18,039 nucleotides of DNA from a virus (taxonomy: Duplodnaviria; Heunggongvirae; Uroviricota; Caudoviricetes), in the IMG/VR virus record IMGVR_UViG_2693429706_000001. One strand, written 5' to 3'. Numbering within the stretch: the stretch's first letter is position 1; every line of letters begins with the position of its first letter. The notes below the pieces were generated by a model. That model saw only the letters and a program-made list of their open reading frames with translations. It did no database searches and had not been told where the DNA came from. This document shows, in pieces, positions 5,735 through 11,680 of the stretch. Position numbers and translations under genes: made by a program.

Positions 5735-5758
5735 AAAAAAGCCCCGGATAACCGGGGC
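5735..5758 (-). terminator. intrinsic (rho-independent) terminator between V and G
   Basis: Minus-strand GCCCCGG-TTAT-CCGGGGC (perfect 7-bp GC stem, 4-nt loop) followed directly by TTTTTT; lies in the 57-nt V-G intergenic space. Confidence 0.7.
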
Positions 5759-6935: not shown

Positions 6936-7510
6936 CGGGTCAGCCATAACCTCAGTTGTTGTTTCAGTGCATACCCCAGCTGTTTCGGCATTTCCGCAGC
7001 AATGATGCGGTCGCGGGCATCTTCAAATGCCTGTGTCAGCGGTCCGGAAAGCGGGATTTTCACCACATCAATGGGGTAACGATTTTTGCCATCAATACGC
7101 CGCATCACATGCCAGCGACCATTCGCCAGTTGCTGAATAAACGCATCCCGGAAAAGATATTTACCCACCTTCAGCACACTGCCACGGTACTGCAGTTTTC
7201 CACCACGCCGGGCCAGTCTGACCCGGGCTGTCCCCAGCTTAATGGCGGGCAGATTGCCCCGGTTAACGCGGATCCTGGCCGTCATTTTTCCTGACGGACT
7301 GGCTTTAAACACCCGGACACGCTGACGTACCAGTTTCAGGGGGATCCCTTTCACCTGGTTATCTCCCGCAACGGTATTCCCGGCAACCTGCCGGGTGGCA
7401 ACCGAGACCGCTTTCTGTGCCACACGGTTTATCGCCCATGCGCTGGCCTGTGGCACCATACGGGTATCAAGGCTGTTCAGATTGCGGATGGCATTCTCAA
7501 GCCCCTTCAT
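6932..7510 (-). CDS. minor tail protein Z (lambda gpZ family)
   Basis: 192-aa ORF (same length as lambda gpZ) located between the FII-like and U genes; AGAGGTG Shine-Dalgarno lies upstream of ATG 7510. Confidence 0.8.
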   Translation of the reverse strand: MKGLENAIRNLNSLDTRMVPQASAWAINRVAQKAVSVATRQVAGNTVAGDNQVKGIPLKLVRQRVRVFKASPSGKMTARIRVNRGNLPAIKLGTARVRLARRGGKLQYRGSVLKVGKYLFRDAFIQQLANGRWHVMRRIDGKNRYPIDVVKIPLSGPLTQAFEDARDRIIAAEMPKQLGYALKQQLRLWLTR

Positions 7511-7521
7511 CCCACACCTCT

Positions 7522-7797
7522 TTACTCAATAAAGATCATTGGCTTACCGTTAAAACGTTCATGCCGTGTGACCGTCCATTGTTGTCCGTCATAAACAACG
7601 CGATCCCCGCGCCGTGGGCGGTATCCCGAAGAAAACACCACCAGAGAGACCGCAGGTCCGGACAGAGCATTCAGCTCTGCCAGTGTTTCGCCCGGGATCA
7701 CAGCCATATCGACATCATTAATCGAGGCTGTCTTTCCCATCTTTCTGACCGTGATCGCATCCATACGCGCTGCCAGCCGGGAAAAGGGATCAGACAT
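7522..7797 (-). CDS. head-tail joining / tail attachment protein (lambda FII-like)
   Basis: 91-aa ORF in the FII position; weak pattern similarity to lambda FII (N-terminal F-x-x-L-x-x-A, PRRGD...W.V.R motif). Confidence 0.6.
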   Translation of the reverse strand: MSDPFSRLAARMDAITVRKMGKTASINDVDMAVIPGETLAELNALSGPAVSLVVFSSGYRPRRGDRVVYDGQQWTVTRHERFNGKPMIFIE

Positions 7798-8113
7798 TGA
7801 GTTTTACCGGCACTTCTTCTGCACTGGTTCCGGCATCTGCCCAGACAACCCCGACCAGCGGATCAGAGCCGCTGTTAGTCAGCTGAACTTTTCCGGACTT
7901 CAGATAAACCTTCTTACCCGTTTTCATGTCATCCGTTTTCAGTTTAGGCAGGATAAACACACCTTCGGTCATGCCGTCGCCTGTTTCACCCTGTGGAATA
8001 TCGGTCAGCGCCACCGCAAAAACATCACCCACCTGCACCAGATCTCCGCTGCTGATGGCTGCACTGGCAACAATCGCCACCGTTTTTCCTTCTTCTACAA
8101 AATTCTTTGCCAT
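7790..8113 (-). CDS. DUF2190-family small head protein (possible decoration/stabilisation protein)
   Basis: MAKNFVEEGKTVAIVASAAISSGDLVQVGDVFAVALTDIPQGETGDGMTEGVFILPK...; GGAGA lies 5 nt upstream of ATG 8113. The longer ORF-track start at 8158 would run through two hairpins. The family name is from memory. Confidence 0.6.
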   Translation of the reverse strand: MAKNFVEEGKTVAIVASAAISSGDLVQVGDVFAVALTDIPQGETGDGMTEGVFILPKLKTDDMKTGKKVYLKSGKVQLTNSGSDPLVGVVWADAGTSAEEVPVKLNV

Positions 8114-8156
8114 AACTGTCTCCGCACAGCCCCGTTCAGGGGCTGATTTCAGGTAC

Positions 8157-8175
8157 AAAAAAAGCCCTTACGGGC
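8157..8175 (-). terminator. intrinsic terminator immediately after the major capsid gene
   Basis: Minus-strand GCCC-GTAA-GGGC (GNRA-type tetraloop) followed by TTTTTTT; begins 25 nt after the capsid stop codon at 8200. Confidence 0.6.
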
Positions 8176-8199
8176 CATCAGAGTTGTTGTCTGCGACGT

Positions 8200-10209
8200 T
8201 TACGCCGTACATTTCACCAGACCGCGGTGATCAACTGGCGCGACACCGGCGTCAATACGCACTTTCGTTGTCACGCCATCCACACTGAAGCCCTCCATCT
8301 GATCAATATATGGCGTATCCACACCGTTGAGATAAGCCACTTCAATCGTATCGGAGCCTTTTGACGCAGCCAGGTAGAAGGTGGTCTGGCTGTTATCATC
8401 AAGACGAGGCTCTGCAATAACGGTCGCAAAATCTTTCACCGGGTTAATAATACCGGCGTTAATGTCAGCCCCCTTGACACTTGAGGAGCGAATGACCTGG
8501 TTAGCAACAGACTCCATCGCCGTCGGTACCAGTACGAACGCAGGACGAATATTCAGATGACGCTCCCCCTCTTTCTGAACGCGCATCAACTGGCGGGCTT
8601 TATCCAGCGATGCCACGTCCATTGCAGCGCTCTCCAGTACGTTTGCATGTTTCGCTTTATCGAACAGACTTACATTATCTGTGGAGATTTTCGGGTTAGA
8701 CGTCAGAATGGCATAAACCAGATCGGCAATAGTGGATTTCGCCGCACGGCCCAGTTTCATCGGGACATCGGTCAGCATATTCAGATCATCATTGATAATG
8801 GCCTGACGGGTGATACTGAACAGCTCGCCATAGGTCGCCAGTGCAATAGTGGCCTGTTTATCTCCGGTGGTGACGTATTTATATTCCGCCCCTTCACGCA
8901 CCTGACGCAGAGCACTGAAGCCACCCATACCCACACGATGGGCAATTTTAAAATCAGACAACTGACCTTTCCGCGTCCACTGTTCATAGGTTTCAGGGGC
9001 ATCTTCCCAGCCCTGCAGAATGGCTTTGTTCGCAACATCCAGCAGAATATTACCGAAGTCAGACGTACTGTGTGTGAACGCCGCACCGACCATCTGCATC
9101 GGGTTATAACTGGAAACCCCAATACCCCGTTCAGTCAGTGACATACGGGCATATTCACGCAGGGTCATCCCGTTGTAGACATTATCACGTTCGGTTTTTT
9201 CAAATCCGGCACGCGCCATCAGCGCCTGGCGGATCCCGTCCCCCACAAAATTACCGTTACCGGCATAAATATGAGCCGGGGTATTTTTATTGGATGGCGT
9301 GGACTCGCGCCCCATCTCGTTCAACAGCTTTTCGCGGGCCTGCTCCAGCGAACATTCAGGATCGGCAAGACACTGAGCCTGCAGCGTCTGATAACGCCCG
9401 CCAAACATGGCAAACAGATCATTAATACCGTTTACACGCGCTTTTTGCTCTGCCAGTACCTGCGCACGGATGCTGTTTTCATCCACCACGGGTGCTGCTG
9501 CCTGCACTGGCGTCCGGGAGGCTTCAGGTTCATTATCCTGTACGCGTGGAGCACTGTTGCGTGGCGGAGTAATCATGTTTCGAATGGATTCCGGCATCTT
9601 TTTAAATTCCTCTGTACGTTTTGACTGAATACATGCCATTGCCTTAACGGCTGGCGTTACCTGATCAGCAAATCCATGTGCCAGACATTCGGCACCGGAC
9701 ATCCAGGTCTCATCCGCCAGCATGGCAGCAATTTCATCGGTGGTTTTCCCGGTTTTCTGTGCATAAGCGGGTAACAGAACCGCCTCAACTTTATCGAGCA
9801 GGTCGGCATAGGTGCGCATGTCCTCCGCATCACCGCCCGTAAAGCCAAATGGTTTATGAATCATCATGAAGGTGTTTTCCGGCATAATGACCGGGTTTCC
9901 CACCATCGCAATGACCGACGCCATTGACGCCGCCACACCGTCGACATAAACGGTAATGGACGCACCATGTGTTTTCAGCGCATTAAAAATGGCGATGCCT
10001 TCAAAGACATCGCCACCCGGTGAATTAATATGGAGATTAATGTGGGTGATATCGCCCAGTGCATTCAGATCACTGATAAACTGCTTCGCTGTAACACCCC
10101 AGAAACCAATCTCGTCATAAATATAAATATCCGCGTCACTCTGGTGACCAGCCTGCATCCTGAACCAGGAATTATTCTTCGGACTGGTCGTCGGTGTGCT
10201 GCGGCTCAT
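8200..10209 (-). CDS. fused prohead protease (ClpP/S14-like) - scaffold - HK97-fold major capsid protein
   Basis: N-terminal region has ClpP hallmarks (INSPGGDVFEGIAIFNAL..., VDGVAASMASVIAMVG with the nucleophile Ser, MIHKP with the His); a central Ala/Gln/Glu-rich linker; the C-terminal ~300 aa resemble a phage major capsid protein. Start uncertain: ATG 10209 overlaps the portal by 38 nt, the alternative ATG at 10158 lies 13 nt after the portal stop; neither has a strong Shine-Dalgarno. Confidence 0.8.
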   Translation of the reverse strand: MSRSTPTTSPKNNSWFRMQAGHQSDADIYIYDEIGFWGVTAKQFISDLNALGDITHINLHINSPGGDVFEGIAIFNALKTHGASITVYVDGVAASMASVIAMVGNPVIMPENTFMMIHKPFGFTGGDAEDMRTYADLLDKVEAVLLPAYAQKTGKTTDEIAAMLADETWMSGAECLAHGFADQVTPAVKAMACIQSKRTEEFKKMPESIRNMITPPRNSAPRVQDNEPEASRTPVQAAAPVVDENSIRAQVLAEQKARVNGINDLFAMFGGRYQTLQAQCLADPECSLEQAREKLLNEMGRESTPSNKNTPAHIYAGNGNFVGDGIRQALMARAGFEKTERDNVYNGMTLREYARMSLTERGIGVSSYNPMQMVGAAFTHSTSDFGNILLDVANKAILQGWEDAPETYEQWTRKGQLSDFKIAHRVGMGGFSALRQVREGAEYKYVTTGDKQATIALATYGELFSITRQAIINDDLNMLTDVPMKLGRAAKSTIADLVYAILTSNPKISTDNVSLFDKAKHANVLESAAMDVASLDKARQLMRVQKEGERHLNIRPAFVLVPTAMESVANQVIRSSSVKGADINAGIINPVKDFATVIAEPRLDDNSQTTFYLAASKGSDTIEVAYLNGVDTPYIDQMEGFSVDGVTTKVRIDAGVAPVDHRGLVKCTA

Positions 10210-11680
10210 GTCGTTTCGTTGCGGCACTGCTGCCTCCTTTATCACTGGCCGGATCGGTATCAAATACCAGATCCAGCTTGCGGTTTTCATCAATTTCGGC
10301 CTTGCGCCGACGTTTGACATCATCCGGATTACGACCACCAGCACGTACCCAGTCTGATTCTGTCGCCGCTCCACCACGAATCTGGATTTTCCAGGCCTCA
10401 GCCTCCTTAACAGGGTCAATCCACGGCATCACCGGTCCGGAATACACCGCGGTATACAGTGAAGAACGGTCAAGATCGCGGGGTAGCCTGATAACACCGG
10501 ATGCCACAGCCTGTTTCAGCCAGGCACGATACATCGGACGGGTGACGGCACCAATAAACCAGTCCTGCAGGATCAGGTAGCCATCAGTGGATTCAACCAG
10601 CTCCTGACGCTGGGCGCTGTAAGTGCCGTTATAGTTGCGCGCTGTACTGGAAAAACTCAGACGACTGCCCGCCGCCACGGCACGCAACTGACCATTACGA
10701 AAAGTTTCAAGGTTAGGATTGGGGCGATCCGACTTCACCATTCCGATTTCTTCGCCGGGTTTCAGATCATCGTAAATAATGCCTGGCTGAATGGTAAGCT
10801 CGCGTTCCTTATCCTTGCTGCCATTACCATCCGCTTCATAGCTCTGCCCGTCGCCTTTCCGGATGTACATCCCCAGAGCAGCGGCGATCCTTGCTGCAGT
10901 CAGCTCAGAATCTTCATACTCTTTCAGAGCACTGAGGCGGATCAGCACACCGGACAATAAAGACGTCCCGCGCATCTGGTGCAGACGGCGAACAAATTTA
11001 AGATGCAGCATTCGCTCTGCATCCACTTCTTTGGTTTCCATCTGCCGTCCGGATACGGGACGGCTTTTATACACCAGATATTTTTCGGGACGCCCCCAGT
11101 CATCAACAAACACGCCCTGATTCAGCCTGTTGCTCTCATCACTGGTCATGGGAATAAAGTCCGGCTCGAGCGCCTCCAGCCAGAAATGAACACCGGCAGA
11201 AGGCGTCAGGCTGTTTATGCGCCCGGAAACCATCTGGGCAAACACCTCACCATCGCGCAGCCAGGTACGAAGCATCAGACGTTCCAGCATCGGACGGGTA
11301 AACTGCCCGGTGACTTCCGGGCTGACAGACCATTCACTCCATCGGGTGCGAATCTCCGCAGCCAGGTCACGGGCAATGGCCCCATTGCGTAATACCGGAT
11401 GTGGCTCGACAATAATCCCGTTTTTCCCCACCACCCGTTCTTCCAGCTTGTCAAATACACCAATAACCAGATCGTGGTTGTTATCAAGGTAACGGGCCTG
11501 CTCACGTAACGACACGGCCCCGTACTGGCTTAACTGGTCGGCAGTTCGGTTCTCCCGTCGGGCTTTGTGTGTCCGCGTCGTTTTTACGGCCTCATAAGCC
11601 TGGATCACCGCACGGGAACGCAGCCTTGCCGCTTTCCATCCTGGTGAAAAAACGCCAATCACATCATCAAGAATTGCCAT
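10172..11680 (-). CDS. portal protein (lambda gpB family)
   Basis: 502-aa ORF in the portal position between gpW-like and protease genes. Start set at ATG 11680 (MAILDDVIGVFSPGW...) with GAGG 5 nt upstream and a 1-nt overlap with the W stop (TGATG). Confidence 0.85.
   Translation of the reverse strand: MAILDDVIGVFSPGWKAARLRSRAVIQAYEAVKTTRTHKARRENRTADQLSQYGAVSLREQARYLDNNHDLVIGVFDKLEERVVGKNGIIVEPHPVLRNGAIARDLAAEIRTRWSEWSVSPEVTGQFTRPMLERLMLRTWLRDGEVFAQMVSGRINSLTPSAGVHFWLEALEPDFIPMTSDESNRLNQGVFVDDWGRPEKYLVYKSRPVSGRQMETKEVDAERMLHLKFVRRLHQMRGTSLLSGVLIRLSALKEYEDSELTAARIAAALGMYIRKGDGQSYEADGNGSKDKERELTIQPGIIYDDLKPGEEIGMVKSDRPNPNLETFRNGQLRAVAAGSRLSFSSTARNYNGTYSAQRQELVESTDGYLILQDWFIGAVTRPMYRAWLKQAVASGVIRLPRDLDRSSLYTAVYSGPVMPWIDPVKEAEAWKIQIRGGAATESDWVRAGGRNPDDVKRRRKAEIDENRKLDLVFDTDPASDKGGSSAATKRHEPQHTDDQSEE

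Follow-up and report, generated by a model that had tools for sequence, protein, structure and literature searches.

The 18,039-nucleotide (nt) stretch of DNA filed as virus record IMGVR_UViG_2693429706_000001, here called the window, represents a cdtI/mEp460-type lambdoid prophage of Escherichia coli. On the minus strand, a gap of 86 nt separates the stop codon of its capsid fusion gene from the start codon of a head decoration gene. This gap harbors a short hairpin (hairpin 1), a run of seven uridines (U7), an 11-nt single-stranded spacer, a second hairpin (hairpin 2) and the Shine-Dalgarno sequence of the decoration gene (Table 1). The arrangement is conserved in homologous junctions, hairpin 2 is under selection at the RNA level, and its position beside the Shine-Dalgarno sequence is fixed. 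Comparison of the junction sequences strongly supports hairpin 2 as a structured cis-regulatory RNA selected as sense-strand RNA. Our preferred, still tentative, interpretation is that the gap may hold a single, conserved module that acts in cis on the late mRNA and combines a weak terminator with an mRNA punctuation cassette.

Selection on hairpin 2 becomes apparent in an alignment (A6) of 52 distinct junction sequences from ~25 genera of Enterobacterales, which we use as the core set. Double-sided changes are found in six of the seven base pairs, with 98.3% of the cells paired. Fitting of A6 to a covariance model biases a covariation test in this alignment, where the hairpin 2 score reaches 0.437, compared with 0.137 +/- 0.013 after shuffling, and is attained in none of 500 shuffles. 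When the 3' partners are slid by 1-3 columns as a control, pairing falls to 24-60%. Independent folding of each sequence yields 35 distinct pairs of hairpin 2 arms, all of which form a helix. G·U pairs occur 25 times and A·C only once, which places the selection for the helix on the mRNA strand; the same asymmetry rules out a DNA-level structure or an antisense RNA. Sense-strand covariation hence lends strong support to the proposal of an earlier note on this DNA that hairpin 2 is an RNA element. Both hairpins fold with a median probability of ~0.97-0.98 within a context of ~330 nt. The stem of hairpin 1 is invariant in the core set, and covariation offers nothing for or against it.

Homologous junctions were gathered in two samples. 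Sample 1 comprises nine divergent phages found via the decoration protein, namely Fels-1, Gifsy-2, a Klebsiella phage, Stx2 and VT1-Sakai phages, a Providencia phage, mEp043, a Pasteurella phage and Citrobacter phage Chris1. Sample 2 comprises 80 loci, one genome per species, found via the C-terminal part of the capsid protein. The 52 core junctions share a module of ~58 nt, consisting of GCCC-N4-GGGC, U7, the 11-nt spacer, hairpin 2, 0-4 nt and GGAG. Within this module, the GCCC/GGGC stem of hairpin 1 is identical in all 52 homologues with a variable loop, and the following U-run is U7 in 50 and U8 in two of them. Hairpin 2 is GC-rich throughout, with 6-10 base pairs (bp) and a median energy of -14 kcal/mol. 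GGAG follows 0-4 nt 3' of it in every core homologue, with no U-run between, and lies 5-10 nt from the start codon. The earlier note had named missing conservation in homologous prophages as a point that would speak against its hairpins; the conservation is clearly present.

Alignment of 45 sequences with MAFFT and RNAalifold recovered only hairpin 1 and left hairpin 2 out of register; the covariance model was therefore built from 14 sequences of identical geometry. It matches 62 loci with 31-82 bits, in genera including Escherichia, Salmonella, Klebsiella, Pantoea, Edwardsiella, Rahnella and Yersinia, along with Serratia, Erwinia, Xenorhabdus, Providencia, Proteus, Morganella, Sodalis and others. 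The window contains a single match (64.7 bits), which covers 8120-8178 of the minus strand. Prophages of enterohaemorrhagic E. coli Sakai carry the module as well, as in the VT1-Sakai junction H0019/H0018 (L087); Term-seq, dRNA-seq, Hfq and RNase E cross-linking data sets have been published for this strain (PMC7547250). Protein-anchored scans of IMG/VR returned only near-identical E. coli prophages and served for microvariation only. The 162 near-identical E. coli copies differ mostly by wobble, loop or linker variants; among the changes are a C-to-U giving a wobble pair, a one-base deletion shifting the stem and one pair-breaking change, and U6 replaces U7 in two copies. Two metagenome-assembled genomes, labeled 'Proteobacteria bacterium' (L172, soil) and 'Bacillota bacterium' (L174), encode a capsid protein whose C-terminal 200 amino acids (aa) are 100% identical to that of the window, and these copies probably reflect contamination or mis-binning.

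Hairpin 1 displays the canonical anatomy of an intrinsic terminator. Its GC-rich stem closes a 4-nt loop and is directly followed by the U-run, and the whole element is located 3' of the stop codon on the coding strand, outside the ribosome footprint. In the core stem, 8175..8172 pair with 8167..8164, and a G·U closing pair is added; at 4-5 bp, the stem is at the low end for terminators. The records of phages mEp460 (NC_019716, 6334-6353), Ayreon (MF807953) and the divergent phage mEp043 (NC_019706) list the same element, at the same position, as a rho-independent terminator; these annotations are predictions and not mapped 3' ends. Together with the stem and U-run kept in 52 homologues, this agrees with the earlier note, which had called hairpin 1 a terminator, and hairpin 1 is thus an ordinary, already annotated element. 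The description of hairpin 1 in that note requires two corrections. Hairpin 1 had been placed straight after the capsid stop and actually begins 23 nt later, and the GNRA loop ascribed to it is present here (GUAA) but recurs in only 21 of the 52 homologues. The distance from stop to hairpin 1 is 18-40 nt in nearly all homologues, and the linker would be long enough for hairpin 1 to escape the terminating ribosome.

Hairpin 2 is not classed as a terminator because no U-run follows its stem, where UGC-GGAG is found instead. Its coordinates, the minus strand, the 7-bp stem, the missing U-tract and the 3 nt to the Shine-Dalgarno sequence had all been given correctly before. Two further classes were considered and rejected. 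A lambda nut site would find a boxB-like stem in hairpin 1, but the GNRA loop is limited to the 21 homologues just mentioned, the sequence upstream is not conserved, and the element lies in a late operon. An RNase III site needs ~20 bp or more of double-stranded RNA, and the stems here measure 4-5 bp and 6-10 bp.

The records of mEp460, Ayreon and mEp043 leave both hairpin 2 and the spacer unmarked. Scanning of window positions 7600-8700 against Rfam 15, at E values up to 10, yielded only a chance match to a small nucleolar RNA inside a coding region, and the same database gave only a sub-threshold isrK match (21.5 bits against a gathering score of 50) on six divergent homologous loci. The isrK match (E 0.43) covers the capsid stop and the first terminator of Citrobacter phage Chris1 (L091, 551-652) and is at chance level. 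Two small RNAs are reported to be encoded by related prophages (PMC7719688, PMC13502914): sRNA-17 comes from E. coli K1, where the prophage is mEp460-like, and HnrS is placed 'within the late genes' of the Sakai prophages Sp9, Sp10 and Sp12. sRNA-17 is ruled out as the present element, as it lies in an intergenic region of >1 kb. Hairpin 2 and the spacer together make up a well-supported, previously undescribed conserved RNA motif of a familiar kind.

The predicted folding energies (RNAfold) of the two hairpins differ. Hairpin 1 reaches -8.8 kcal/mol, or -6.7 kcal/mol for the 4-bp core alone. A simple terminator scan places it among 41 terminator-like matches in the window, compared with 16.7 expected, and because of this number hairpin 1 alone is unremarkable. 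Hairpin 2 reaches -13.9 kcal/mol, a value equalled by none of 200 shuffles. Perfect GC-rich stems of at least 7 bp occur four times in the 18 kb, compared with 1.6 +/- 1.3 in shuffles, and two of the four are located in gaps, one after the capsid gene and one after the tail-tube gene. The evidence against a chance origin comes chiefly from conservation and covariation, which we regard as decisive. The other two such hairpins, at 7379-7395 (gpZ) and 11044-11064 (portal), are both inside coding regions; the latter resembles a terminator if the plus strand is read, in antisense orientation to the genes. The stem after the tail-tube gene belongs to a terminator that is annotated in mEp460 and Ayreon; the next ribosome-binding site (GGUGGAG) is reached within 6 nt, and a second hairpin is lacking. 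Hairpin 1 and this tail-tube terminator flank the block of genes from decoration to tail tube.

The conserved spacer between the hairpins had been overlooked by the earlier reader. Both hairpin loops and the three bases before hairpin 1 are near-random; the spacer is conserved in sequence. Its columns, counted over the 52 core junctions, read A (47), U (50), R, Y, C (52), U (49), R, A (43), A (51), A (47) and then U, C or A. In the ~330-nt context, U7 and spacer are mostly unpaired, with a median of 0.64 for the spacer. In relatives without hairpin 2, too, the U-run of the terminator is succeeded by the spacer motif. It takes the form AUUACCUGAAAU in Psychromonas, AUUAUCAAAAAU in Pasteurella and AUCCCUGAA in Chris1-like phages. 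RNAfold suggests for the window that the YCU of the spacer pairs with GGAG, as an anti-Shine-Dalgarno would, but partition-function analysis of 51 homologues does not support this candidate, as it shows no consistent partner. The mean pairing probability of the YCU in these is 0.24 for the Shine-Dalgarno sequence and 0.25 for a CAGG within the coding region. Predicted accessibility of the Shine-Dalgarno sequence is 0.54 with native and 0.49 with shuffled spacers, and is lower with the native one in only 20 of 51. No significant site complementary to the spacer was detected elsewhere in the window.

More distant relatives display several variations of this pattern. In the Chris1-like enterobacterial family, the first hairpin has 6-7 bp and the second often carries its own U-rich run, so that the arrangement is one of tandem terminators. 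Junctions of Vibrionales, Alteromonadales, Pasteurella and Pseudomonas hold a single strong terminator (-11 to -15.5 kcal/mol) without a second hairpin. Weak first hairpins (-5 to -9 kcal/mol) are always accompanied by hairpin 2, which hints that the two may share a task. In two Buttiauxella loci (L184, 1489-1839, and L194), the decoration gene is missing and the module is kept, directly preceding a homologue (46% identity) of the 91-aa FII-like head-tail gene of the window. The module therefore belongs to the junction and not to one particular downstream gene.

A clue from Salmonella concerns the same junction in Gifsy-2. In S. Typhimurium, transient overexpression of HilA strongly regulated STM14_1174-1178 (Gifsy-2 STM1034-1038), and the profiles of STM1034, STM1036 and STM1037 track genes of Salmonella pathogenicity island 1, as stated by Smith et al. 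2016 (PMC5013294). The study places the capsid fusion gene STM14_1173 outside the HilA-responsive block, and records that no HilA chromatin immunoprecipitation (ChIP) signal was obtained. STM1034 is the decoration gene right after the module in Gifsy-2 (L084, 701-1718), and STM14_1178 is the tail-tube gene, after which there is a gap of 46 nt. Co-regulation of SL1344_0973 to _0975 without _0972 is seen in a second data set (PMC5694781). The start of the Gifsy-2 block at the module is a hint of a transcript boundary in vivo, possibly of an internal start. Gifsy-2 lytic genes stay at or below 10 transcripts per million (TPM) in all SalCom conditions and are essentially silent in lysogens (PMC7067206).

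In the interpretation that we tentatively prefer, hairpin 1 and U7 would form a minimal intrinsic terminator for polymerases without Q, for example during stray transcription in the lysogen, and Q-modified polymerase would largely pass hairpin 1 in lytic growth. Lambdoid Q proteins should let late transcription largely ignore such terminators, and this is why we assign the effect of hairpin 1 to unmodified polymerases. In the read-through RNA, the two hairpins would flank an exposed AU-rich stretch of 18 nt (U7 plus spacer), at which a nuclease, most likely RNase E, could enter or cleave. The capsid message would be guarded from 3'-to-5' exonucleases by hairpin 1, with the far more stable hairpin 2 behind it. 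Hairpin 2 would provide the downstream message with a paired 5' end and keep its ribosome-binding site free of upstream pairing. The outcome would be separate fates and separate translation of the capsid cistron and of the head-completion and tail cistrons; termination, read-through, cleavage and stabilisation are all steps that we infer. The earlier note had suggested that hairpin 1 attenuates transcription after an abundant capsid message. This now appears doubtful, given the minimal stem of 4-5 bp, the Q-like antiterminator of this phage type and the identity of the next gene. Plain attenuation would be an unsatisfying purpose because that gene encodes a predicted decoration protein, expected in capsid-like amounts.

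Several observations weigh against this interpretation. The published RNase E preference, RN|WUU, is poorly matched by the spacer, and the sole good fit is GC|UUU, located where the stem of hairpin 1 ends. That U7 is perfectly conserved suggests a greater importance of termination, or of another function of the U-tract, than the model needs, and a hairpin that is needed only for its stability leaves the sequence conservation of the spacer unexplained. The association of weak first hairpins with hairpin 2 corresponds to a Spearman coefficient of -0.25 (p 0.03) in non-independent data from few clades, confounded by phylogeny. The Salmonella clue rests on low counts, the Gifsy-2 lytic genes being nearly silent in lysogens (PMC7067206). 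Finally, every functional step is one that we infer.

A more specific proposal, which we consider unlikely, is that the spacer is a sequence-specific recognition site and forms, with hairpins 1 and 2, a dedicated cassette that would act either as a programmed cleavage point or as an unconventional internal start. As a cleavage point, the cassette would, in late operons under Q antitermination, separate the message for the capsid from that for head completion and tail by programmed cutting of the mRNA. As an internal start, it would allow lysogens to express the decoration-to-tail-tube block separately, as hinted by the HilA-responsive STM1034-1038, and structural genes of the prophage would become linked to a virulence regulon of the host.

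Parts of the module resemble known systems. In phage T7, the intrinsic terminator Tphi likewise directly follows the major capsid gene 10, with a ribosome-binding site at once after it, and partial read-through is likewise required for essential downstream genes. The T7 sequence U6-G-CUGAAA-GGAGG-AACUAU-AUG (L252, 150-180) reads like the module minus hairpin 2. Its G-CUGAAA-GGAGG after the U-run resembles the spacer and Shine-Dalgarno sequence here, a likeness of 6 nt that may be due to chance. T7 differs in having one long hairpin and a different polymerase, and no second hairpin lies between CUGAAA and GGAGG. In lambda, the hairpin AUGGCCC-UUCG-GGGCCAU between E and FI is again a GC-rich tetraloop hairpin after a lambdoid major capsid gene, with the FI Shine-Dalgarno sequence 11 nt downstream. 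Unlike here, lambda has only this one hairpin, located 2 nt past the stop codon; its U-rich run is broken (UGUUUCUCUGU), the conserved spacer is lacking, and the decoration gene lies upstream of E.

Likenesses are also found among elements that govern mRNA stability. The ompA leader stem-loop reportedly stabilises its mRNA, and the processing site of T4 gene 32 is said to be a hairpin-flanked RNase E site. Both share with the present module a stable hairpin near a potential 5' end, just upstream of a ribosome-binding site and beside an AU-rich single strand. They differ in that the spacer here is a poor match to RAUUW or RN|WUU, and that the 5' end here is putative. The repetitive extragenic palindromic (REP) element in malE-malF reportedly acts as an intercistronic 3' stabiliser. 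Phage SPP1 has predicted terminators after its capsid gene (PMC6316719, Table 2). In the malE-malF and SPP1 cases, as here, a stem-loop directly follows the cistron of a polycistronic message that is needed in the greatest abundance. Hairpin 2 is distinct from REP sequences; it occurs only once in the window and is specific to the junction.

The constant proximity of hairpin 2 to GGAG would also be accounted for if hairpin 2 and spacer were the translation initiation region of the next gene and had no part in RNA stability, an explanation that is possible but falls on the unlikely side. U7 and spacer would then offer a standby or S1 platform, and the closed hairpin 2 would bring this platform to GGAG and insulate the ribosome-binding site, allowing very efficient translation of a high-copy decoration protein. 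The distance of 0-4 nt between hairpin 2 and GGAG agrees with this, as do the constant length (~18 nt) and AU-richness of the single-stranded stretch, the T7 sequence between Tphi and gene 11, and the predicted decoration function of the downstream gene. Relatives without hairpin 2 (L090, L210, L213) moreover place the AU-rich motif directly before the Shine-Dalgarno sequence. U-rich leaders are said to enhance translation (rnd), and standby sites flanking hairpins have reportedly been described. However, the module persists in loci that lack the decoration gene and in which a low-copy head-tail joining gene comes next, S1 or standby binding does not need an invariant C and U, and the predicted Shine-Dalgarno accessibility is alike for native and shuffled spacers. 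Alternatively, hairpin 2 could be a back-up or degenerate terminator in a tandem pair, its U-tract overwritten by the ribosome-binding site and its stem kept as a pause or road-block. We assign this little probability. It would fit the second hairpins of Chris1-like phages, whose U-rich runs are exemplified by GGCGGCGCUGGUCGCC-UUUUCCUUUU and GGAGUGGCGCGUGCUGCUCC-UUUUUUG, but not the 52 of 52 core homologues in which GGAG directly or nearly directly succeeds hairpin 2 without a U-run, and the many compensatory changes that keep the stem point to a current function without a U-tract. A purely historical origin, in which the junction is a repeatedly homogenised recombination linker between head-gene modules and its hairpins are incidental, seems very improbable. 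Lambdoid genomes are mosaic, and the gene content in Buttiauxella changes exactly at this junction; yet homogenisation can yield neither 35 different stems that all pair nor near-random loops beside invariant positions, and covariation already disfavors it.

An internal promoter over the U-tract and spacer would give hairpin 2 yet another role, that of a 5'-terminal stabilising stem-loop on a transcript that spans decoration to tail tube and could be made in lysogens. Hairpin 1 would then terminate the upstream unit, and the new transcript would begin a few nucleotides before hairpin 2. This too is quite improbable. The HilA-regulated block in PMC5013294 spans exactly the genes from the module to the tail-tube terminator, without STM14_1173, and the co-regulated SL1344_0973 to _0975 (PMC5694781) point the same way. 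The border of U7 and spacer also contains a conserved T-A-T, which, if read as a -10 element, would place the start 1-3 nt before hairpin 2. Against this stand the consensus scan, in which no sigma-70-like promoter was found near 8113-8200 in the window or in Gifsy-2, as well as the ChIP result and the low TPM values given above. The candidate -10 for sigma-70 or sigma-S, TATRYC, ends in C (position -7) in 52 of 52 sequences, and no -35 partner is present for sigma-70, sigma-E or sigma-32. For sigma-E, TCTRA fits, but GGAACTT is missing 16 nt upstream; for sigma-32, the CTTGAAA-like sequence lacks a CCCCAT partner. A sigma-54 site in the CCGGCAC stems was dismissed for its wrong spacing and because these stems are without conservation.

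The junction region of the window shares 99-100% identity with several phages, including cdtI, mEp460 and Ayreon, and with prophages in 1829 of 5426 complete E. coli genomes. The gene upstream of the junction, called a major capsid gene in the earlier note, does contain a capsid domain but is a fusion of ClpP-like protease, scaffold and capsid. Pfam assigns CLP_protease to residues 95-255 and Phage_capsid_4 to residues 441-736 of its longest open reading frame (ORF), and the start annotated in mEp460 is internal to this ORF. RefSeq names the product 'ClpP-like prohead protease/major capsid protein fusion protein'. The downstream protein matches PHROG 122, 'head decoration', with an E value of 1.4e-46. 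Beyond the decoration gene follow a Gifsy-2-family head-tail protein, gpZ, gpU and the tail tube gpV, and all genes around the junction are on the minus strand. The Q-like antiterminator of this phage type is encoded upstream of the lysis and structural genes. The two small genes after the capsid gene (window 7522-8113) bear inconsistent, probably misleading names in public records; Pfam and PHROGs identify them as encoding a decoration/cement protein and a head-tail joining protein. The window also contains a run of 10 N at 1309-1318.

Table 1. Features of the capsid-decoration junction and of related genes in the window
Feature	Position	Strand	Basis or remark
ClpP-like prohead protease/scaffold/major capsid fusion gene	8200..10419	minus	longest ORF; stop TAA 8202..8200
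Stop codon TAA	8202..8200	minus	sequence
Variable linker, 23 nt	8177..8199	minus	without conservation among homologues
Hairpin 1, G-GCCC-GUAA-GGGC-U	8163..8176 (core 8175..8164)	minus	sequence, RNAfold
U7 tract	8157..8163	minus	directly abuts hairpin 1 stem
Single-stranded spacer, GUACCUGAAAU	8146..8156	minus	family consensus AURYCURAAAU
Hairpin 2, CAGCCCC-UGAAC-GGGGCUG, 7 bp, no U-tract	8127..8145	minus	sequence, RNAfold
Linker UGC	8126..8124	minus	
Shine-Dalgarno sequence GGAG	8123..8120	minus	then ACAGUU
Start codon AUG of the decoration gene	8113..8111	minus	
DUF2190/Phage_cement_2 head decoration gene, 107 aa	7790..8113	minus	Pfam PF09956, E 1.3e-20
Tail-tube terminator, GCCCCGG-UUAU-CCGGGGC-U6	5741..5758	minus	-16.2 kcal/mol; after gene V

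Terminators and stem-loops after capsid genes are routine. What is new here is a defined module of ~58 nt with an RNA-selected hairpin 2 and a conserved spacer, a module that roughly one third of the complete E. coli genomes carry and that also occurs in the prophages of many enterobacterial pathogens. If this module sets the cutting, stability or restart of the late message, it would explain how the balance of capsid, decoration and tail proteins is obtained from one antiterminated transcript. It would then also be a compact natural part for operon design, in which a terminator, an insulator hairpin and a ribosome-binding site are combined.

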